The position numbers and the translations under genes are program-made. Of a DNA stretch of 32,000 bases, positions 3,173-26,883 are shown one piece after another (the first letter of the stretch is position 1; each line of letters opens with the position of its first letter). The stretch covers positions 210,001 to 242,000 of the forward strand of contig NZ_CP135009.1 in assembly GCF_039383305.1 (NCBI RefSeq). The letters are read 5' to 3'. The notes beneath the pieces were generated by a model, which saw nothing but the letters and a program-made list of their open reading frames with translations, was not told the DNA's origin and searched no databases. This stretch comes from Candidatus Saccharimonadota bacterium (lineage in GTDB: Bacteria > Pseudomonadota > Gammaproteobacteria > Enterobacterales > Enterobacteriaceae).

Positions 3173-5203
3173 TTATTTTTTTTGTGATATATATAATTTT
3201 TTTAACCACTGATAATACCAAAAAATACGATCTTCATCTTTTTTAAAATTTCTATAAAAATAAATTTTTTCTTTAGTAATTTTCCATTTTTTAGGTTTTT
3301 TTAAAATTTCTGTTGATAACCATATAGTATTTAGATTGGAATTTTTTAAAAAAATTATATAACTTTTTTTAACACGAGAATAAATTTTTTTAATATTTAA
3401 TAAAGAACTTAAAATTCGTATTTTTTCTAAGAAAAATAAATTTTTGGCGAAAATAGGTAAAACACCATATAAATTAATAATGTTATTTTTAATTTTTTTT
3501 AATTTTTTTAATGTAGTAATTTTTGAAATTTTATAATAATAAAATAATCTAATATCTATATTTTTTATATAATTTTTTGGAAATATTGCTGAAATACTGA
3601 AATCTATTTCAACAGTATGAAAAAAATTTAAATTAAAAATATTATCATTTTTAAGGTTTTTAATAGCTTTATATAATAATTTTTTATATAAATTTAAACC
3701 AAAACTTTGAATATGACCACTTTGATTTTTTCCTAAGATTTCTCCTACTCCTCTTATTTCAGCATCTTTTGTAGATAATAATAAGCCTTCTCCTATTTTT
3801 TTAGAGGATTTTAAAGCTTGAAGTCTTTTTTTAGCGTTTTTTGTAATTTTTGTTTTTGATTTAATAAAAAACCAAGCATATGCTTGCTTGTAAGATCTAC
3901 CTACACGACCACGTAATTGATGTAATTGTGAAATTCCAAATTTATCTGCATTTTCTATTATGATAGTATTGACATTAGAAATATCAATTCCAGTATCAAT
4001 AATCGTTGTACAAATTAAAATATCAAATTTATATAAAATAAAATCATGGATAATTTTTTTTAAATTTTTACCGGACATTTGACCATGACCAATATTTATT
4101 CTAGCTTCTGGAATAATCTTTTTTAATTTTTTTGCTTTTTTTGTAATCTTTTTAACACTATTATATAAATAATAAATTTGTTCTTGTTTTTTTATTGCTT
4201 TTAAAATAATTTTTCGAATTAAAAAAATATCATATTTTAAAATAAAAGTTTTAATAGGTACTCTATTTTTTGGGGGATTTTTTAAAATAGATAAATCTCG
4301 TAATCCTAATTTAGAAAATTGTAATGTTCTCGGAATAGGAGTTGCAGTTAAAGTTAAAATATCAATATTTATATATATTTTTTTAATTATTTCTTTATGA
4401 GATACTCCAAAACGGTGTTCTTCATCAATAATTAATAATCCTAAATTTTTCCAAATAATTTTTTGAGATAATATTTTATGTGTACCAATTAAAATATTAA
4501 TTTTTTTAGTTTTTAATTGGTCAATTATACAATTTACATCTTTTTTTTTTGTAAAACGAGTTAAAATTTTAATTTTATAAGTGTATTTAGAAAATCTTTT
4601 TTTAAAATTATAAAAATGTTGTTGAGCTAGTAAAGTAGTAGGCACTAAAATTGCAACTTGTTTCATATTATCTAAAGCGATAAAAGCGGCTCTCATAGCA
4701 ATTTCAGTTTTTCCGAATCCAACATCACCACATATTAAACGATCCATAGCTTTTTTTTTAGACATATCTAATAAAACTTCTTGCATAACTTTTTTTTGAT
4801 CTGATGTTTCTTTATATGGAAAATCTTGACAAAATTTTTTATAATGAAAAGAATTTTTTTTAAAAGAAAATCCAATTTGAAAATTTCTTTTTGAATATAC
4901 ATTTAATAATTGTGATGCTATTTGATATATTTTTTTAAAAGATTTTTTTTTTTCTGTATTCCAAATATCATTTCCTAAAGTATGTAGTATAATTTTAGAA
5001 TTAATAGATTCTGGATAAATATTGATTAAATACAAAGATGTAATAGGTACATATAATTTAGTTTTTTTTGCATACATAATTATTATAAATTCCATTTCTT
5101 GATTTTTATTTTTAATTAAATGAATTCCTTGATAACGTCCTATTCCATAATTTAAATGTATAATTGTTTGATTTTTTTTAAAAATTTTTATGTTAGTATT
5201 CAT
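3173..5203 (-). CDS. mfd: Transcription-repair coupling factor Mfd, N-terminally truncated form (RNAP-interaction domain, translocase and C-terminal domain only)
   Basis: The 676-aa ORF has an ATG start. It aligns from the first residues with about residue 475 onward of E. coli Mfd (HLNYGIGRYQG, LICGDVGFGKTE Walker A, DEEHRFG, GRVGRS). Only about 165 nt separate its start from gapA, which leaves no room for domains D1-D3. Confidence 0.9.
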   Translation of the reverse strand: MNTNIKIFKKNQTIIHLNYGIGRYQGIHLIKNKNQEMEFIIIMYAKKTKLYVPITSLYLINIYPESINSKIILHTLGNDIWNTEKKKSFKKIYQIASQLLNVYSKRNFQIGFSFKKNSFHYKKFCQDFPYKETSDQKKVMQEVLLDMSKKKAMDRLICGDVGFGKTEIAMRAAFIALDNMKQVAILVPTTLLAQQHFYNFKKRFSKYTYKIKILTRFTKKKDVNCIIDQLKTKKINILIGTHKILSQKIIWKNLGLLIIDEEHRFGVSHKEIIKKIYINIDILTLTATPIPRTLQFSKLGLRDLSILKNPPKNRVPIKTFILKYDIFLIRKIILKAIKKQEQIYYLYNSVKKITKKAKKLKKIIPEARINIGHGQMSGKNLKKIIHDFILYKFDILICTTIIDTGIDISNVNTIIIENADKFGISQLHQLRGRVGRSYKQAYAWFFIKSKTKITKNAKKRLQALKSSKKIGEGLLLSTKDAEIRGVGEILGKNQSGHIQSFGLNLYKKLLYKAIKNLKNDNIFNLNFFHTVEIDFSISAIFPKNYIKNIDIRLFYYYKISKITTLKKLKKIKNNIINLYGVLPIFAKNLFFLEKIRILSSLLNIKKIYSRVKKSYIIFLKNSNLNTIWLSTEILKKPKKWKITKEKIYFYRNFKKDEDRIFWYYQWLKKLYISQKK

Positions 5204-7320: not shown

Positions 7321-10131
7321 ATGAAAAAAAATAATATTTTTCAAGAAAATTGGTTATATAGTGATAATCAAAATTTTTTAGAATCATTATATAATTTATT
7401 TTTTATTAATTCTAATAATATTCATCAATATATAGATAAAAATTTTGAAAAAAAAATTTTTGAATTATTAAATTCAACTTCTTTTTTTTCTCAATCTGAA
7501 AATGCTAAAAAATTTCTTACTTCTTCAATTTTTAAAAAAAAAAATGAAAATTTTATAAAATATCCTAAAAAAAAAATTATTTCAGAAAATTTTTTGAAAT
7601 TTTTTGAGAATATAAAAAAATACGGTCATTATCATTCTAATCTCAATCCTTTAGATATTAAAACAAAAAATACTATTCCTGAATTAAATTTGTCTTATTA
7701 CAAATTATATAAAAAAGATTTAAAAATTTTAATTTCAGAAAATTTTTTACATTTTAAAAAAAAAAAAAATACTTTTCAAGATATATATTATTTTTTTAAA
7801 AAAAAATATTGTAAAAATATTGGTTATGAATTTAAACATTTAAAAGATAAAAAAGAAATTATTTGGTTAGAAAAATACATTGAAGAAAAATTTTTAAAAT
7901 ATTCTTTTAACAAATCAGAAAAAAAAAAAATATTAAAAAATTTAATATTTGCTGAAACATTTGAAAAATTTATTCATCAAAAATTTCCTGGTAGTAAAAG
8001 ATTTTCTTTAGAAGGATGTGAAATTTTAATTCCTTTATTAAAAAAAATTTTTAAAGATTCTTTTAAGTATAATATTCAAAAAATATTTTTAGGTATGACA
8101 CATCGTGGCCGATTAAACGTAATGCATAATATTTTTAAAGAAAATTTAACAAATATTTTTAAAAAATTTTTTGGAAATTTAGAAAATACTGAAATTACAG
8201 GTGATGTAAAATATCATTTAGGAATAAAAAAAAAAATTTTTAATCAATGTTCTAATATTGAATTATTTTTGTTACCTAATCCTTCTCATTTAGAAATTAT
8301 TACTCCTGTGGTGTTAGGAAGTTGTAGAGCAGCTATTAATTTTTTAAATTTAAAAAATAATAATAATACTGTATTACCAATTATTATTCATGGAGATTCT
8401 GCTTTTACAGGTCAAGGTGTAGTACAAGAAACTTTAAACATGTCTCAAGTATTAGGGTATACTGTTTCTGGAAGTATACATATTATCATTAATAATCAAA
8501 TTGGGTTTACGACTTCTAATATCAATTTATTACGATCAAGTTTTTATTGTACAGATATAGCTAAAATGATTGATTCTCCTATTTTTCACGTTAATGCAAA
8601 TGATCCTAAATCAGTAATTTTTGTAATTACATTAGCATTAAAATTTCGTATGATTTTTAAAAAAGATGTTTTTATTGATTTAGTATGTTATCGTCGTTTA
8701 GGGCATAATGAAGCAGAAGATCCTAATGTTACACAACCATTAATGTATTCTCAAATTAAAAAATTAAAATCTATAATGGAAATTTGGAAAAAAAAATTAA
8801 TTTTTGAAAATATTAAATATGAAATACACTTTAAAAAATTTTTAAATGATTATAAAAAAAAATTAAATCAAGCTTTTTTAGAAGCTCAATCTAAAAATAA
8901 TAATAAAAATTTAGAAATATATAATATGATACAAAAAAAAAAAAAAAAATCATATAGATTTTCTAAAATATCATTCCAAAAATTAGGATTAAAAATTTTT
9001 ACTATTCCTAAAGATTTTATATTGCATCCTCAAGTAAAAAAAATTTTTTTACAACGTATTTCTATGATTTACGAAAAAAACAAATTTGATTGGGGAGCAG
9101 CAGAAAATTTAGCATATGCAACATTATTAAAATTAGGAATTTCCTGTAGAATTACAGGGCAAGATGTAAGTCGAGGAACCTTTTCACATCGTCATGCTTT
9201 ATTACATTGCCAAAAAAATAATACAATATATATTCCTTTAAAGAATAATTTAAAATCTTCTGTATTTTTTGAAATTTGGGATTCTGTTTTATCAGAAGAA
9301 GCAGCTTTAGCATTTGAATATGGATATTCTATACAACCTTATAAATTTTTAACTGTTTGGGAAGCTCAATTTGGAGATTTTTGTAATGGAGCTCAAATTG
9401 TAATAGATCAATTTATTGCTTCAGGATTTCAAAAATGGGGAAACGAATCTTCATTAATTTTATTGTTACCACATGGATATGATGGACAAGGGCCTGAGCA
9501 TTCTTCGGCACGTATTGAACGTTTTTTACAATTATGTGCTCAAAAAAATATGAAAATTTGTATTCCAACGACTGCTTCTCAAATGTATCATTTATTATGT
9601 GAATATGGAATTAGTAATTCTAAAAGACCATTAATTATTTTTACACCCAAATCTCTATTAAGAAATTATTATACTTTCTCTACATTAGAAGATTTTTTAA
9701 AAAAAAAATTTTCTAAAATTTTATATAAAAAATTTCTTTATAAAAATATTTTGATTACAAGAATTATTTTTTGTGCTGGAAAAATTTATTATGAATTAAA
9801 AAAAAAACATTTATCTTTAAAATTTACAAATATTTTATTAATACGTTTAGAGCAACTTTATCCTTTTCCAACAAAAAAAATTAAAAAAATCTTAAAGAAA
9901 TGTACTTCTTTAAAAGAATGTATTTGGTGTCAAGAGGAACCTGAAAATCAAGGTTGTTGGACATATTTTTTTTATTCTTTTCATAAATATTTACATTTTT
10001 TTTTAAAAAAAATTGTTTTATATTATATAGGACGTTCAAAATTTGCTTCTACTTCGGAAGGCTCTTATAATTTACATTTAATTAAACAAAAAAAAATTAT
10101 AGAAAAAGCTTTTGCAACAATTTTGAAATAG
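7321..10131 (+). CDS. sucA: 2-oxoglutarate dehydrogenase E1 component
   Basis: 936 aa, collinear with E. coli SucA (FPGSKRFSLEG, HRGRLNV, GDVKYH, GQGVVQETLN, CYRRLGHNE, PHGYDGQGPEHSSAR, WCQEEP-NQG). Confidence 0.97.
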   Translation: MKKNNIFQENWLYSDNQNFLESLYNLFFINSNNIHQYIDKNFEKKIFELLNSTSFFSQSENAKKFLTSSIFKKKNENFIKYPKKKIISENFLKFFENIKKYGHYHSNLNPLDIKTKNTIPELNLSYYKLYKKDLKILISENFLHFKKKKNTFQDIYYFFKKKYCKNIGYEFKHLKDKKEIIWLEKYIEEKFLKYSFNKSEKKKILKNLIFAETFEKFIHQKFPGSKRFSLEGCEILIPLLKKIFKDSFKYNIQKIFLGMTHRGRLNVMHNIFKENLTNIFKKFFGNLENTEITGDVKYHLGIKKKIFNQCSNIELFLLPNPSHLEIITPVVLGSCRAAINFLNLKNNNNTVLPIIIHGDSAFTGQGVVQETLNMSQVLGYTVSGSIHIIINNQIGFTTSNINLLRSSFYCTDIAKMIDSPIFHVNANDPKSVIFVITLALKFRMIFKKDVFIDLVCYRRLGHNEAEDPNVTQPLMYSQIKKLKSIMEIWKKKLIFENIKYEIHFKKFLNDYKKKLNQAFLEAQSKNNNKNLEIYNMIQKKKKKSYRFSKISFQKLGLKIFTIPKDFILHPQVKKIFLQRISMIYEKNKFDWGAAENLAYATLLKLGISCRITGQDVSRGTFSHRHALLHCQKNNTIYIPLKNNLKSSVFFEIWDSVLSEEAALAFEYGYSIQPYKFLTVWEAQFGDFCNGAQIVIDQFIASGFQKWGNESSLILLLPHGYDGQGPEHSSARIERFLQLCAQKNMKICIPTTASQMYHLLCEYGISNSKRPLIIFTPKSLLRNYYTFSTLEDFLKKKFSKILYKKFLYKNILITRIIFCAGKIYYELKKKHLSLKFTNILLIRLEQLYPFPTKKIKKILKKCTSLKECIWCQEEPENQGCWTYFFYSFHKYLHFFLKKIVLYYIGRSKFASTSEGSYNLHLIKQKKIIEKAFATILK

Positions 10132-10141
10132 GATAAATTTT

Positions 10142-11383
10142 ATGAAAAATATACAATTTTTAGCTCCTGAATTACCAGAATCTGTTAGTACAGCTATTAT
10201 TTTAAAGTGGAATAAAAAATGTGGAGAAAAAGTTAAAATAGATGAAATTTTAGTTGAAATTGAAACTGATAAAATTATTTTAGAAGTAGTAGCTCCAGTT
10301 TCAGGAATATTAATAAAAAAATTTTTTTCTCAAGGAGATGTAATACAATCTAAAATAATTTTAGGTATAATACAGAAATTTCCTAAATCTATTGCTAAAA
10401 ATGAAGATAATTTTTTAAATTTTTCTCATAAAAAAATTAAAAGAAAAAAAAATATAAAAAAAAATAAATTAATTTCTTCTTTGCATTTATCTCCTTTTCA
10501 AAGACGTTTACAAAAAATTGAATTATTTTCTGAGGAAAATAACAAAAATGATAATATTAATTTTAAAGAAAAAAATGAAAATACACAATCTTTTAAAATA
10601 AATAATAAGAGTCATATTCCTATAAAAAAAATAAATATTTTAGAAAATAATAAAAATGATAATATATTTAAAAAATCAGAAAAAAAAAATATTAAAAAAA
10701 TTTCAATGAGCCCTATTCGTCAAAAAATTGCAGAAAGATTATTATTTACTCAAAAAAATACTGTTATGTTAACTACATTTAATGAGGTTAATATGACATC
10801 TATTATTAAAATACGTACTGAATATTTTAAATTTTTTAAAAAAAAATATAATATTCGTTTAGGTTATATGTCGTTTTTTGTTCAAGCTGTAACAGAAGCA
10901 TTAAAAAAATTTCCTATTATAAATTCATCGAAAGAAGACAATAATATTATTTATTATAAATTTTATAATATTAGTATTGCTGTATCTACATCTAGAGGTC
11001 TTTTAACACCAGTTTTAAAAAATACTCAAAATATGAATATGGTAGATATTGAGAAAAAAATTAAATATTTTTCAAAAATTGGAGAAAAAGGAACATTAAA
11101 ATTAGAAGATTTACAAAATGGAACTTTTACTATTACAAATGGAGGAATTTTTGGTTCTCTATTATCAACTCCAATTATTAATCCTCCTCAATCTGCTATT
11201 TTAGGGATGCATAATATTTTAAAACGACCTATTGTATTACAAGATCAAATTTTAATTCAACCTATGATGTATTTATCTTTAACATATGATCATCAAATAA
11301 TTGATGGGCAACAAGCAATACAATTTTTAAAATATGTCATTGAAATTTTAGAAAATTTTTCAAGAATTAATTTAAATATATAG
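10142..11383 (+). CDS. sucB: 2-oxoglutarate dehydrogenase E2 (dihydrolipoyllysine succinyltransferase)
   Basis: 413 aa. Lipoyl domain with VEIETDKI (lipoyl-Lys) and a catalytic domain ending in LTYDHQIIDG. The AGGA Shine-Dalgarno overlaps the sucA stop, 10-nt spacer. Confidence 0.95.
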   Translation: MKNIQFLAPELPESVSTAIILKWNKKCGEKVKIDEILVEIETDKIILEVVAPVSGILIKKFFSQGDVIQSKIILGIIQKFPKSIAKNEDNFLNFSHKKIKRKKNIKKNKLISSLHLSPFQRRLQKIELFSEENNKNDNINFKEKNENTQSFKINNKSHIPIKKINILENNKNDNIFKKSEKKNIKKISMSPIRQKIAERLLFTQKNTVMLTTFNEVNMTSIIKIRTEYFKFFKKKYNIRLGYMSFFVQAVTEALKKFPIINSSKEDNNIIYYKFYNISIAVSTSRGLLTPVLKNTQNMNMVDIEKKIKYFSKIGEKGTLKLEDLQNGTFTITNGGIFGSLLSTPIINPPQSAILGMHNILKRPIVLQDQILIQPMMYLSLTYDHQIIDGQQAIQFLKYVIEILENFSRINLNI

Positions 11384-11491
11384 TTTTTTATAAAATTTTT
11401 TTTTAATGTATTAGAAAAATTTTTTATGTATAGTATTTTCGTATAATATAAAATTATAGAATTATTTTTTATAAAAGGAAAAAAAAAAAAA

Positions 11492-12184
11492 ATGAAAAAA
11501 AACATAATAGTTTTAATTCGACATGGAGAAAGTAAATGGAATCAATTGAATCAATTTACTGGTTGGCAAGATGTAGACTTATCTAAAAATGGTAAAAAAG
11601 AAGCATATTTAGCTGCACAAAAAATTTTTCAAAAAAAAATTTTTTTTGAAATTTCTTATACTTCAGTATTAAAACGAGCTATTCATACTTTATGGATTAT
11701 TTTAAAATATCTTAATCAATCATGGATTCCTATTCAAAATCATTGGAAACTTAATGAAAGGAATTATGGTGCATTAGAAGGATTAAATAAAGAAAATATA
11801 TTAAAAAAATATGGTGATAAGCAAATACAGTTATGGAGAAGAAGTTTTAAAAGTTTACCTCCTAAATTAACGCAAGAAGATTTACGTTATCCAGGATATG
11901 ATAAAAAGTATTTTTTTTTAAAAAAAAAACAATTACCTTTGTCAGAAAGTTTAGAAATGACTTTAAAAAGAGTACAGCAATGTTGGAAAGATTTTATTTT
12001 TCCTGAATTAAAAAAAAAAAAAAATATTTTAATAGTAGCTCATGGAAATTCTTTAAGAGCTTTAATAAAATATTTAAATAATATGACTGATGTTGAAATT
12101 TTAAATTTTGAGATTCCAACAGGAAAACCTATTATATATGAATTTTCAAATAATTTTATTCCTTTAAAATATTCTTACCTTTAA
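11492..12184 (+). CDS. gpmA: 2,3-bisphosphoglycerate-dependent phosphoglycerate mutase
   Basis: 230 aa. LIRHGESKWN catalytic motif, ERNYGAL, VAHGNSLRAL. Preceded by AAGGA followed by an A-run. Confidence 0.95.
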   Translation: MKKNIIVLIRHGESKWNQLNQFTGWQDVDLSKNGKKEAYLAAQKIFQKKIFFEISYTSVLKRAIHTLWIILKYLNQSWIPIQNHWKLNERNYGALEGLNKENILKKYGDKQIQLWRRSFKSLPPKLTQEDLRYPGYDKKYFFLKKKQLPLSESLEMTLKRVQQCWKDFIFPELKKKKNILIVAHGNSLRALIKYLNNMTDVEILNFEIPTGKPIIYEFSNNFIPLKYSYL

Positions 12185-20592: not shown

Positions 20593-21552
20593 ATGAAAAA
20601 AAAAGTTTTTTTAAATGTTAAATTAATTATTATAGGATCTGGTCCTGCTGGATATACTGCTGGTTTATATGCTGCCAGAGCTAATATTTCTACTATTCTT
20701 TTTGAAGGTCCTAATCCTGGTGGACAATTATTAAATACTTCTTCTATTGAAAATTGGCCCGGTCAATTCAATTTTATTAGTGGTCAAGAATTAATGACAA
20801 ATATGAAAAAACAAGTAAAAAATTTACATATAAAAATTATAAACGATACAATACTTAAAATTTTAACAAAAAAAAAAAAATTTATTGTTTTAACAAAAAA
20901 TAATCAATATTTTTCAGATTCGATTATTATTGCTACTGGAGCTATAGCTCGTTCATTAAATATTTCTACTGAAAAAAAATATTTAGGTAAAGGTGTATCT
21001 ACTTGCGCTATTTGTGATGGATATTTTTATAAAAATAAACCTGTGGCTGTGATTGGTGGAGGTAATACTGCAATTGAAAATGCATTATATTTATCTAAAA
21101 TTTCTAAAATTGTATATTTAATACATCGTCAAAATACTTTTCGGGCCGAAAAAATTTTAATTAAACGTTTAATGGAAAAATGTATTTCTAAAAAAATTAT
21201 TATTTTTCAGCCCTTCATACTTAAAAAAATTTTAGGAGATAACTCTGGTGTATCTGGAATTAAAATTCAATCTGTTATAGAAAAAAATAATCAAATTTTA
21301 AAAATTTTTGGATTGTTTGTATCAATTGGTTATATACCCAATACTCAAATTTTTAAAAATTTGTTACATATTGATTCTAATGGTTACATTATTTTAAACA
21401 AGAAATCAAAATTTTTTACTACTGAAACAAATTATCCAGGAATATTTGCTGCTGGAGATGTAGTTGATAATGTTTATAAACAAGCAATTACTGCAGCAGC
21501 TAATGGTTGTCAAGCTGCTATGGATGTTGAAAAATATTTACATATAAAATAA
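20593..21552 (+). CDS. trxB: Thioredoxin reductase
   Basis: IIGSGPAGYTA FAD motif, redox-active CAICDG, GGGNTAIE NADPH motif, FAAGDV. ATG 20593 is preferred over the TTG at 20587 (AAGGG Shine-Dalgarno upstream). Confidence 0.95.
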   Translation: MKKKVFLNVKLIIIGSGPAGYTAGLYAARANISTILFEGPNPGGQLLNTSSIENWPGQFNFISGQELMTNMKKQVKNLHIKIINDTILKILTKKKKFIVLTKNNQYFSDSIIIATGAIARSLNISTEKKYLGKGVSTCAICDGYFYKNKPVAVIGGGNTAIENALYLSKISKIVYLIHRQNTFRAEKILIKRLMEKCISKKIIIFQPFILKKILGDNSGVSGIKIQSVIEKNNQILKIFGLFVSIGYIPNTQIFKNLLHIDSNGYIILNKKSKFFTTETNYPGIFAAGDVVDNVYKQAITAAANGCQAAMDVEKYLHIK

Positions 21553-21928: not shown

Positions 21929-23634
21929 ATGCGTACTATAAAATGCGGTATATTTAAAAAAAAATATTTTCAAAAAACTTGTACTTTATGTGGATGGGTT
22001 CAAAATATCAGAAATTTAGGGAATATGTTATTTATTCAATTAAAAGATCGATATGGAATTTCTCAAATTGTTTTTCATTCAGAAATTTTAAAAAAATTTC
22101 CTCTGATTATGAAAATTAAAAAAGAATTTTGTATACAAGTTACAGGTACTGTACAAAAAAAAAAAATGTTAAAAAAAAATTAGAAAATTTTGAACTTCAT
22201 GCTCAAAAATATAAAATTTTTAATAAAACACTTCCAATTCCTTTAGATTATAATAAAAAAAATAAAGAAAAAATCCGACTTCAATATAGGTATTTAGATT
22301 TACGTTGTAAATTTATGATTGAAAATTTTAAAATTAGAAATATTGTTTCAATGTTAACACGAAAATATTTAGAAAAAAACAATTTTTTAGAAATTGAAAC
22401 ACCTATCTTAACAAAATCTACACCCGAAGGCGCTGAAAATTTTTTAATTAAAAGTAAATATTTAGGTAAGAATTATGCATTACCTCAATCTCCTCAATTA
22501 TTTAAGCAATTATTAATGATTTCTGGTTTTGATAAATATTATCAAATTGCAAAATGTTTTCGAAATGAAGATTTACGTTCAGATCGACAACCTGAATTTA
22601 CACAAATTGATATTGAAGCTTCTTTTATAACATCAGAAAAAATACAAGATTTTATCGAAACTTTAATTAAAAAAATTTGGTTAAAAATTTTAAAATTTAA
22701 ATTAAAAGTTTTTCCTAAAATTACATATAAAAATAGTTTAAAATATTACGCAACAGATAAACCAGATTTAAGAAATCCATTAAAATTTTTAAATATTACA
22801 AAAATTTTTAAAAAAAAATGGAATATTTTTTTTTCAAATTTTGACTTCTTATTAAATCAAGATAGAATAGTTTCTCTTCATATTTTTCAAGGTGTTTTAT
22901 TATTAAATGAAAAACATTTTAAAAATTATAAAAAAATTTTTAAAAAATTTAAAATTCATAATTTTTATATTGTAAAAGTTATGAAAAAAAAAATTATTAT
23001 TAATAATTTTAATACAAAAAAAATTACAAAAAAAAAATATCATATGTGTTTAAAAATTATTTCTTTTATTAAATGTATACAGAATGATATTTTATTTTTT
23101 GCTATAACCTCAAAATATGTTAATAATAATTTTTTATCTAAATTAAGAATGCAAATTGGAAAAGATTTAAAAATAATTAAAGAAAAAATTTGGAAACCTG
23201 TATGGATTATAGATTTTCCATTATTTAATTTAGATTTAAGTAATAATACTATAAAATCTGTACATCATCCTTTTACAGCTCCTAAAAATATTGATGAAAA
23301 TATCACTCAAGAAAATGTTTTAAAAATTATTTCTAGTGCATATGATTTAGTAATTAATGGATATGAAATAGGTGGAGGATCACAACGTATTTATGATGCT
23401 GTGTTACAAAAAAAAATTTTTAATTTTTTAAATATTAGTAAAGATTCTTTAGAAAAAAATTTTAATTTTTTTTTAAATGCTTTACAGTACGGCGCTCCTC
23501 CTCATGCTGGTATAGCTTTAGGATTAGATCGAATAATTATGTTATTAACTAATAATTCTACAATTAAAGATGTTATAGCTTTTCCTAAAACTAATTCAGC
23601 CCTTTGTTTATTAACTGGAGCTCCAAATGAATAA
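21929..23634 (+). CDS. aspS: Aspartate--tRNA ligase, reading frame broken by a 1-nt deficit in a poly(A) tract (two overlapping ORFs, 21929-22183 and 22129-23634)
   Basis: ORF1 encodes the N-terminal OB-fold (LCGWV, EFCIQVTGTV) and ORF2 the rest (RLQYRYLDLR, TPEGA, QSPQLFKQLLM, CFRNEDLR.DRQPEFTQID, GGGS.RI, PPHAGIALGLDR). Together they are collinear with E. coli AspRS, and the frames switch at A12 (22155-22166). Confidence 0.9.
22155..22166 (+). other. A12 homopolymer at the aspS frameshift site, followed by A9 at 22171-22179
   Basis: Counted directly. Adding one A (or removing two) joins the ORF1 frame to the ORF2 frame and gives ...TGTVQKKKKNVKKKLENFELH... Confidence 0.85.
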
Positions 23635-23650: not shown

Positions 23651-23684
23651 AAAAACCATCATGCGAAATAACATGTTGGTTTTT
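23651..23684 (+). terminator. Putative aspS terminator
   Basis: AAAAACCATCATG (23651-23663) pairs with CATGTTGGTTTTT (23672-23684). That is 13 bp with one mismatch and an 8-nt loop. It starts 17 nt after the aspS stop and has a U-rich 3' arm. Confidence 0.55.
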
Positions 23685-23723
23685 ATTAAAAAAAAATCTA
23701 TTAATATTTTTCGGGAGAATAAA

Positions 23724-24455
23724 ATGGCAGGACATAGTAAATGGTCAAATACTAAACACAGAAAAGCAGCTCAAGATTATAAAAAAAATCAAAAATCTAT
23801 GAAATTAATACGAAATATTACAAGTGCAAGTAAAAAATATGGTAATAATCCTAATATAAATTTTTGTTTAAGAGCAGCTATTATCAAAGCTACTAATAAT
23901 AATATTTCAAAAAATTCTATAAAAAAAGCTATTCAACGTGGATCTTTGAATTTCGAAAAAAAAAAAAAAATTCAACAAATCAAATATGCAGGATGTAATA
24001 AAGAAGGAATAATTATATTAATTTCTTATATTTCTAAAAATATTTTAGATATTCAATCAAAAATTCATAAAATTTTTAAAAAATATAATTTTTTTTTTAT
24101 TCATTATTTAAAAATTAAATATTTGTTTCAAGAATGTATTATTTTTTTATTTCAAAAAACTAAAAAAAATGAAGAAATTTTAATTAATCTAGCTATAGAA
24201 AATAATGCATATGATATTGACACAAATTCATTTAAAAAAATTAAAATTATTATTAATACTTTTGATGCTAAAAATATTAAAAAAGAATTTAAAAAATTTT
24301 CTTTAAAAATTTTAAAAACTGATACTAAAGTTATAGCTTTTAAAAAACATCAAATAATTTCTTTAACTATAGAAAAATTTAAAAAATTTTTAAAAGAATT
24401 AAAAAAAATTCCAGAAATTCAAAATATTTCTCATAACGCATTTACTAAAATATAA
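23724..24455 (+). CDS. yebC: YebC/PmpR-family transcriptional regulator or translation factor
   Basis: MAGHSKWSNTKHRKAAQD is the family N-terminus. GGGAGA Shine-Dalgarno 6-7 nt upstream of ATG 23724. The 21 upstream codons in the ORF track have no counterpart in the family. Confidence 0.88.
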   Translation: MAGHSKWSNTKHRKAAQDYKKNQKSMKLIRNITSASKKYGNNPNINFCLRAAIIKATNNNISKNSIKKAIQRGSLNFEKKKKIQQIKYAGCNKEGIIILISYISKNILDIQSKIHKIFKKYNFFFIHYLKIKYLFQECIIFLFQKTKKNEEILINLAIENNAYDIDTNSFKKIKIIINTFDAKNIKKEFKKFSLKILKTDTKVIAFKKHQIISLTIEKFKKFLKELKKIPEIQNISHNAFTKI

Positions 24456-26039: not shown

Positions 26040-26883
26040 AAAATATTATCCTATTTTAAAAAAATATAATGTGTTTAGCAAAAAAATATAAAACTTAATA
26101 TATTTTTATATTGTATATAAGAGAAATTTTATTAAAAAAAATATTTTTTTAAAAAAATATATAAAAAATATTTTTTTTAAAAGATATATAAAATTTTTAT
26201 ATAATTTTTTTATATTATGATTTTTTTTAAAAAAAAAATTAAAATCTGTATAATACATATTATATATATAAAAATTATATTATAAATATAAATAGTAAAA
26301 AATAATTTTATCAATATTAATAAAAAATAATATTTTTTTAATTTTTTATAAATTATAAATTTTATTATAAAATATTTTTTTTATATTATATACATTAAAC
26401 TTCAAGAATTTTAATAAAAATAAAATTTTTAAAAAAATAGATATTATTTTTTTTGAAAAAATATATTTAAAAATATTTAATTTTTTAATACTAAATAAAA
26501 ATTTTACAATAATTGTAAAATTATTAAAATTAAAATTTTTATAAATTTTACTTTTATATTTTAAAAAATATTATACTACATTAATTTTAAAAAAATAAAT
26601 TTTTAAAAATCTCTACTTTTGAAAATTATTTTTTAAAATTCTAAAAAATAATATATTTTATAATAAATATAATTATTATTAAAATAAAAAAAATTTAATT
26701 TTTTTAAAAAAAATATAAAAATTTTTATATATAATTTTTTAAAATGATTAAAATTTTATATAAATTTTAAAAAAATTAAAATTAAATTAATAAATAAAAC
26801 TGTATAAAAATATTATTTTTTATAAAAAAAAATCTAATTTTAATAATAAAATATAAATTATAAAACTACAGGAGAAAAAATAT
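26040..26883. other. 844-bp non-coding spacer of extreme A+T content between divergent pykA and htpX
   Basis: No ORF appears in the track. My hand count gives about 43 G/C in about 843 nt (about 5% G+C). It ends with the htpX Shine-Dalgarno GGAGA at about 26871-26875. Confidence 0.8.

Follow-up and report, generated by a model that had tools for sequence, protein, structure and literature searches.

Frameshifts in poly(A) tracts that are rescued by transcriptional slippage have been described in Buchnera aphidicola and Blochmannia (Tamas et al. 2008 PNAS; Wernegreen et al. 2010 MBE; both as summarized in PMC5009743 and PMC3017870). Bacterial RNA polymerase slips on runs of at least nine A or T residues (PMC5009743), and in the frameshifted genes of these endosymbionts frame-corrected transcripts amount to 12-50% of the total according to one summary of Tamas 2008 (PMC5009743), full-length ones to about 30% according to another (PMC3017870). 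In Blochmannia vafer the essential genes dnaX, dnaG and pth are frameshifted in poly(A)/poly(T) tracts and evolve at normal rates, the dnaX frameshift being present in two species (Williams and Wernegreen 2010, PMC3017870), and in Chaitophorinae Buchnera a poly(A) frameshift in pheA is conserved across host genera and was curated as functional citing Tamas 2008 (Manzano-Marin et al. 2023, 10.1101/2022.08.28.505559), as Buchnera genome curators routinely do with poly(A) frameshifts (10.1101/2022.08.28.505559). Here we analyse a stretch of 32,000 nucleotides (contig NZ_CP135009.1, positions 210,001 to 242,000; hereafter the window) from Buchnera aphidicola of Nippolachnus piri, in which aspS, the gene for aspartate--tRNA ligase (AspRS), is broken by one frameshift in a run of twelve A residues (A12). 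We consider it probable that the frameshift is truly present in the genome, that the gene is essential and functional, and that slippage on the A-run bypasses the break.

The aspS lesion resembles the cases of Tamas and co-workers in being one indel confined to a long A-run (at least nine) of an otherwise intact gene in an AT-rich obligate insect endosymbiont, and in occurring across populations and related species that show no additional decay of the gene; the fit to this pattern, pointed out in a preliminary description of the window, holds against the literature (PMC5009743, PMC3017870, 10.1101/2022.08.28.505559). As in B. vafer, an essential housekeeping gene is interrupted only in a homopolymer tract, but the tracts there extend to about 12 bp, whereas those of the window reach A17 and the aspS site ranges from A12 to A19 across Buchnera. 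Conservation across host genera is shared with the pheA frameshift of Chaitophorinae Buchnera; unlike aspS, which serves core translation and has no obvious substitute, pheA is nutritional and its loss could be complemented by a co-symbiont. The phenomenon itself is already established. The useful features of this instance are that it affects a sole-copy aminoacyl-tRNA synthetase gene, that the frameshift spans two host genera and that, unlike in the earlier cases, natural in-frame and out-of-frame alleles occur within one host species (Tuberolachnus salignus). Neither the genome paper on T. salignus, nor the data paper on N. piri, nor the other literature searched was found to report aspS or this locus among such cases.

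The gene occupies 1706 nt on the + strand, a length not divisible by 3, and the tract reads GTAC-A12-TGTT-A9-TTAG. The position of the break inside the A12 run, as given in the preliminary description, proved exact to the base, together with those of the following A9 run and the stop codon. The elements of the locus are as follows.

21929..23634, + strand: whole aspS gene with a -1 frameshift (matches of the repaired translation to NF001750 and 1C0A; synteny)
21929..22183, + strand: first open reading frame (ORF1), 84 amino acids, comprising OB-fold strands beta1-beta4, then 5 out-of-frame codons (MLKKN) and a stop (AspRS profile positions 4-87; strands from the structural model)
22129..23634, + strand: second frame (ORF2), open from TTG, 501 amino acids (reading of the ORF)
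22155..22166, + strand: A12 slippery tract, the presumed frame-restoration site, encoding Lys77-79 and in frame at lengths of 10, 13 or 16 (sequence; homologous sites)
22165..23634, + strand: downstream frame from the Asn80 codon (AAT), with beta5, the hinge and class II core motifs 1-3 (invariant columns; ratio of nonsynonymous to synonymous substitution rates, dN/dS)
22171..22179, + strand: A9 run, which may act as a secondary site of rescue in N. piri alone; +1 here would give VQKKKMLKKKLE (sequence)
22181..22183, + strand: TAG stop of the upstream frame, which starts at ATG 21929 (sequence)

Addition of one A to the A12 run yields a protein of 568 amino acids with no other stop. This repaired protein scored 650.3 bits against the NCBIfam AspRS equivalog NF001750 (cut-off 443; profile positions 4-572 of 590) and 604.7 bits against TIGR00459 (cut-off 373.85), and E. 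coli AspRS (1C0A) aligned to it over residues 1-569 (E = 1.8e-148). ORF1 alone scored 76.6 bits at profile positions 4-87, and neither ORF singly would match the full length. The invariant columns QSPQ-FKQ, FR-EDLR-DRQPEFTQ-D and GLDR--MLLT are kept, and the product has the N-terminal OB-fold anticodon-binding domain and the class II catalytic core of a bacterial-type (class IIb) aspartate--tRNA ligase. The insertion-domain region (22800-23200) retains its length but is highly degenerate, rich in K, I and N, and aligns poorly; most Buchnera AspRS have a precomputed Pfam match to the GAD-like insertion domain (PF02938), whereas the enzymes from N. piri and T. salignus have none. The gene order trxB-infA-aspS-yebC-pykA is common to other Buchnera, and there was no sign of a second aspS. 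WP_343126372.1, XAJ79113.1 and XAJ79494.1, which are identical to ORF2, are encoded by CP135006.1 (417,640 bp) and a genome of 417,660 bp, both from Buchnera of N. piri (isolates 09 and 10). In RefSeq and GenBank (WP_428994281.1/WP_428994282.1, WP_343126372.1) each half has an entry of its own, one named 'OB-fold nucleic acid binding domain-containing protein' and the other a truncated 'aspartate--tRNA ligase' of 501 or 503 amino acids, with neither a frameshift nor a pseudogene flag.

The A12 state was found in all six N. piri assemblies, namely the window, CP135006.1 and the Logan assemblies of SRR29339701, SRR29339702, SRR28869278 and SRR28869279; at least three isolates can be told apart among them. 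Over 13.5 kb, 2 single-nucleotide polymorphisms (SNPs) and 2 indels separate the window from CP135006.1, the only indels being in intergenic homopolymers at 26706 and 26824, both in the pykA-htpX spacer. The SRR29339701 and SRR29339702 assemblies are identical to the window, and SRR28869278/SRR28869279 form a third population with 6 SNPs and no indel relative to the window in 5.8 kb. Three of these six SNPs fall in aspS (22306, 23080 and 23280), the nonsynonymous ones being C60R and Q318K in ORF2 numbering.

An obvious concern is that the true tract is A13 everywhere and that short-read or PCR-based consensus sequences undercount it by one. Homopolymers of 12-13 bases are error-prone, the libraries of isolates 09 and 10 were PCR-amplified and sequenced on a NovaSeq instrument (Lu et al. 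2024, PMC11193766), the 2016 assembly from T. salignus, polished at 1,473x, gives A13, and three of the Logan assemblies probably share reads with the CP1350xx genomes, judging from run numbering and identity to the window. The window itself provides a control for such an error. It has 19.9% G+C and contains 27 A-runs and 13 T-runs of at least 10 bases; 35 homopolymers of this size lie within coding sequences (14 of them of at least 12 bases, including A13, A14, A15 and A17), and the aspS A12 alone breaks the frame. The in-frame runs include the A13 of trxB (20868-20880), an A13 and an A14 in pfkA and the A15 of yebC. General undercounting is very unlikely because the other 34 runs are in frame, and a length-dependent bias would be expected at many tracts rather than at aspS alone. 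Profile searches over the window ORFs other than trxB, infA, aroA, serC, serS and pykA likewise showed every scanned ORF to match essentially its whole family profile, with the exception of an N-terminally shortened mfd. Moreover, at least three assembly pipelines called A12, in at least five biologically distinct samples that come from two host species, and three T. salignus assemblies show no further homopolymer difference in 7.5 kb. An artefact is accordingly quite improbable in our judgement.

The second host species is T. salignus, whose Buchnera has the AspRS closest to that of N. piri (71% identity). In T. salignus CP135003.1, OZ035016.1 and Logan SRR29339699, aspS is split into 83 and 503 amino acids at the same GTAC-A12. 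The 2016 reference LN890285.1, obtained from a pool of 15 aphids from Brittany (HiSeq2500, 1,473x, polished and manually inspected; T. salignus genome paper), has an in-frame A13 and encodes a normal AspRS of 570 amino acids with the junction VQKKKNHNNLKK, exactly the predicted repair. The comparison of tract length in related strains that the preliminary description had called for thus returned A12 in every N. piri assembly and in two of three T. salignus isolates, the third carrying A13. In the 7.5 kb compared among the three T. salignus isolates there are 7 SNPs and, as the sole indel, the aspS tract, and every variant is private to one isolate. These assemblies therefore represent distinct isolates, which agree in the length of all other homopolymers. 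Rooting on N. piri makes A12 the ancestral state by parsimony and A13 private to the Brittany isolate, although independent A13-to-A12 slips may have occurred instead. Downstream of the tract the two lineages have diverged, and the out-of-frame tails of ORF1 read MLKKN in N. piri and IIII in T. salignus. A search with the 84-residue ORF1 for further split aspS genes returned only its own cluster.

The presence of both alleles in T. salignus raises the question of variation at the level of DNA, in which the highly polyploid Buchnera of each host would carry, through replication slippage, a mixture of A12 and A13 copies in a heteroplasmic or phase-variation-like manner, the in-frame copies supplying most of the AspRS. 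The T. salignus isolates show no indel apart from this tract, the A13 assembly was built from 15 pooled aphids, and the two intergenic homopolymers that vary in length between N. piri isolates indicate that replication slippage is ongoing. As in the phase-variable contingency loci of Neisseria and Haemophilus (PMC2831843), a one-base length change in an intragenic homopolymer toggles the frame between isolates. Unlike those loci, aspS is an essential housekeeping gene and not a surface or virulence gene, an 'off' state of the gene can never be complete, and nothing indicates selection for switching. The A12 consensus in five of the six distinguishable samples makes in-frame copies the minority, and Tamas 2008, as summarized in PMC5009743, ascribes corrected frames to slippage at the transcript level. 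We regard heteroplasmy as an unlikely principal source of the enzyme; it is compatible with slippage during expression, and both can operate at once.

If aspS were instead an early pseudogene, its two halves should be decaying while charging of tRNA-Asp is supplied from elsewhere, for example by a co-obligate symbiont or the host. Gene loss in Buchnera usually begins with a poly(A) frameshift (PMC5574713, PMC3017870), and co-obligate symbionts accompany Lachninae Buchnera (PMC4898801). Substitutions between N. piri and T. salignus were compared using our own Nei-Gojobori implementation. Downstream of the tract, aspS has a dN/dS of 0.31 with 71% amino acid identity, 2 gap columns and no stops, as compared with 0.23-0.34 for the intact neighbours aroA, serC, serS, trxB, pykA and htpX and 0.04 for infA. 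The expectation in the preliminary description that the roughly 500 downstream codons are open, keep the class II motifs and remain under selection was borne out. The rate is near normal despite the frameshift (0.31 downstream, 0.55 upstream), as in the cases of Tamas and co-workers, and the substitution patterns point to purifying selection on both halves of the gene; the somewhat raised ratio of the N-terminal part is what early decay would also produce. The chance that a 489-codon frame stays open in DNA of 20% GC is about 4e-22 (stop frequency 0.096 per codon). ORF2 differs between the two lineages at 304 of 1470 nt, and under composition-matched neutral substitution it was still open in none of 5000 simulations after 152 changes and in 6% after 30. 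Neutral decay is incompatible with the open ORF2 because the simulated frame had closed after 152 neutral substitutions.

A dead gene in the same neighbourhood offers a contrast. The glucose-6-phosphate dehydrogenase gene zwf is intact in T. salignus Buchnera (487 amino acids; 10159-11622 of the compared stretch), whereas tblastn found no zwf remnant in the 845-bp pykA-htpX spacer of N. piri (26040-26883). This gene has been completely lost in the N. piri lineage, where dead genes vanish. Taken together, a dN/dS like that of intact neighbours, the open ORF2 and the contrast with zwf argue that aspS past the frameshift is still translated and selected. The lesion is shared by two genera with no second lesion in either, and all 118 other top AspRS matches, including every other Buchnera among them, are full length. 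We know of no mechanism that would import an aminoacyl-tRNA synthetase into Buchnera. A decaying aspS is thus very unlikely.

The gene directly downstream of aspS, yebC (23661-24455, + strand), carries an A15 run at 23956-23970 and is the fastest-evolving neighbour, with a dN/dS of 0.65 and 57% amino acid identity to T. salignus; it may be under relaxed constraint. In T. salignus OZ035016.1 a SNP (8341 of the compared stretch) makes yebC 4 codons shorter. The called yebC length differences among assemblies were considered as a further tract polymorphism and rejected, as they reflect start-codon calls and one SNP, with no indels.

Which of the two A-runs is the site of the shift can be addressed from the protein that results. 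One extra A or two fewer in the A12 run rejoin the frames, as the preliminary description had stated: A13 gives ...TGTVQKKKNVKKKLENF... with three lysines (VQKKKNVKKK) and A10 gives VQKKNV. The junction peptide proposed there, VQKKKKNVKKK, is one lysine too long and would require A16; the correct peptide is FCIQVTGTVQKKKNVKKKLE. In the HMMER alignment the lysine run corresponds to E. coli R76-K81 and K-N-V to K81-N82-I83, which supports the argument of the preliminary description that the letters between the two runs belong to the downstream frame. The A12 run is favoured as the shift site because of this K-N-V alignment, and because the sister lineage T. salignus can be rescued at A12 only: its frame-1 stop is a TAA whose A residues open the next run, an A8. 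The earlier placement of the error in the A12 run therefore stands, but its exclusion of the A9 run does not, since one base added to the A9 run would bring the N. piri gene back into frame as well, giving VQKKKMLKKKLENF (VQKKKMLKKK). The A9 run was rejected as the primary site on homology and on the T. salignus sequence, and is kept as a secondary site in N. piri.

In an AlphaFold model of the repaired AspRS (15-sequence alignment; predicted local distance difference test, pLDDT, 60 overall and about 80 for the OB fold; only the OB-fold secondary structure was used), beta4 comprises residues 68-77, the following loop 78-87 and beta5 88-97. On this model the tract thus straddles the boundary between beta4 and the beta4-beta5 loop of the OB-fold domain. 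The homologous site carries an in-frame A19 in Buchnera of Pterocallis alni, an A14 in Buchnera of Greenidea ficicola and the A13 of T. salignus LN890285.1 (position 3227 in each of the three compared stretches), and the nearest full-length relative (SRR33594963; 55% identity) has no poly(A) tract there. Poly(A) tracts at this site have thus arisen independently in other Buchnera lineages, and the beta4-beta5 loop is a recurrent site of poly-lysine expansion. As in-frame A13, A14 and A19 occur there, varying numbers of lysines are tolerated, and proteins made after slippage by +4 or -2 would therefore probably work too.

The position of the break also bears on whether the two ORFs could be expressed as a split enzyme, with the 84-residue OB-fold fragment joining in trans a catalytic polypeptide initiated separately at TTG 22129 or later. 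Split aminoacyl-tRNA synthetases exist in other systems, both ORFs are conserved and overlap alike in the two lineages, and NCBI annotates them as two proteins. The break, however, lies inside the OB barrel between beta4 and beta5 and not at a domain boundary; the shared TTG is simply the overlap of the conserved Phe-Cys codons TTT TGT and is not preceded by a Shine-Dalgarno-like motif; the out-of-frame tails of ORF1 are not conserved; and the A13 allele of T. salignus encodes a normal fused protein. Two cooperating polypeptides are thus scarcely credible here.

Bypass of the frameshift by slippage on the A-run would proceed as follows. Literal translation of the A12 DNA would give the 84-residue fragment only, and full-length AspRS (568 amino acids, junction ...TGTVQKKKNVKKKLE...) would arise from expression events that read the run as 13. 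The rescue step and its mechanism are candidates proposed by analogy with other loci, the most probable route being that RNA polymerase slips back by one base and leaves an extra A in the mRNA. In Buchnera, 151 of 157 transcription insertions fell in homopolymers, most of them single-base, at a rate rising exponentially with run length up to 11 nt (PMC5574713); this published +1 bias is in the direction needed at the aspS tract. Alternatively, the ribosome may slip by -1 on A-AAA-AAA, a slippery heptamer present in frame 1 of the tract (C-AA-AAA-AAA-AAA-A), and the resulting protein would be identical to the +1 A product (VQKKKNV). In dnaX, slippage on A-runs takes the form of -1 ribosomal frameshifting (on A-AAA-AAG in E. 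coli) and of transcriptional slippage (PMC5009743). Like that site, the aspS heptamer allows tRNA-Lys to re-pair in the -1 frame. Unlike dnaX, aspS has no downstream stimulatory structure, and the shift would be corrective, with no second functional isoform. On reading the sequence, no Shine-Dalgarno-like element was seen upstream of the slippery site. In N. piri the A9 run may offer a weaker second chance before the stop.

Since slippage on long runs would be frequent whatever the template length, the amount of AspRS made from the A12 and A13 alleles probably differs in degree only, which would explain why the out-of-frame allele persists in two genera and coexists with the in-frame allele in T. 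salignus. The window has 31 sense-strand poly(A) runs of at least 10 bases inside genes, so that slippage must cost intact genes many transcripts as well. The sucA gene (7321-10131, + strand) contains eight A-runs of at least 10 bases, ranging from A10 to A17 (A17 at 8933-8949), all in frame; if slippage scales with run length as published, sucA transcripts that are in frame throughout would be a minority.

Several observations weigh against slippage-based rescue of a fully constrained gene. In both lineages a stimulatory RNA structure was sought in the 100 nt that follow the tract, and none was found (z = 0.16 and -0.68 relative to shuffled sequences), so that any ribosomal contribution would be unprogrammed. 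The A13 of LN890285.1 means that the consensus varies between samples, and mixed A12/A13 genome populations may contribute through length polymorphism in the DNA. The upstream dN/dS of 0.55, a noisy value from 79 codons, and the nonsynonymous nature of two of the three intraspecific N. piri SNPs in aspS, a small number, are compatible with some relaxed constraint.

A further possibility is that the A12 state has been selectively maintained since before the split of Nippolachnus and Tuberolachnus, acting as an attenuator that sets a low AspRS dose through the frequency of slippage, while occasional returns to A13, such as that of the Brittany isolate, would give heritable variation in dosage. 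We hold this to be doubtful; if true, a housekeeping gene would be run permanently through recoding.

Elsewhere in the window, the shortened mfd (3173-5203, - strand) encodes only 676 amino acids and matches positions 473-1142 of the 1148-position NF007966 profile. It is without the N-terminal approximately 470 residues, the UvrB-homology and RNA polymerase-interaction region, and 130 bp separate mfd from gapA.

Aminoacyl-tRNA synthetases are among the last genes that an endosymbiont can lose, and a shared, polymorphic aspS frameshift constitutes a clean natural test of how slippage at the level of expression buffers damage in degenerate genomes. The A12 and A13 forms of T. salignus are matched natural alleles with which the real cost of a frameshift could be gauged. 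For comparative studies, the split annotation of aspS inflates counts of coding sequences and misleads tallies of gene content and pseudogenes.

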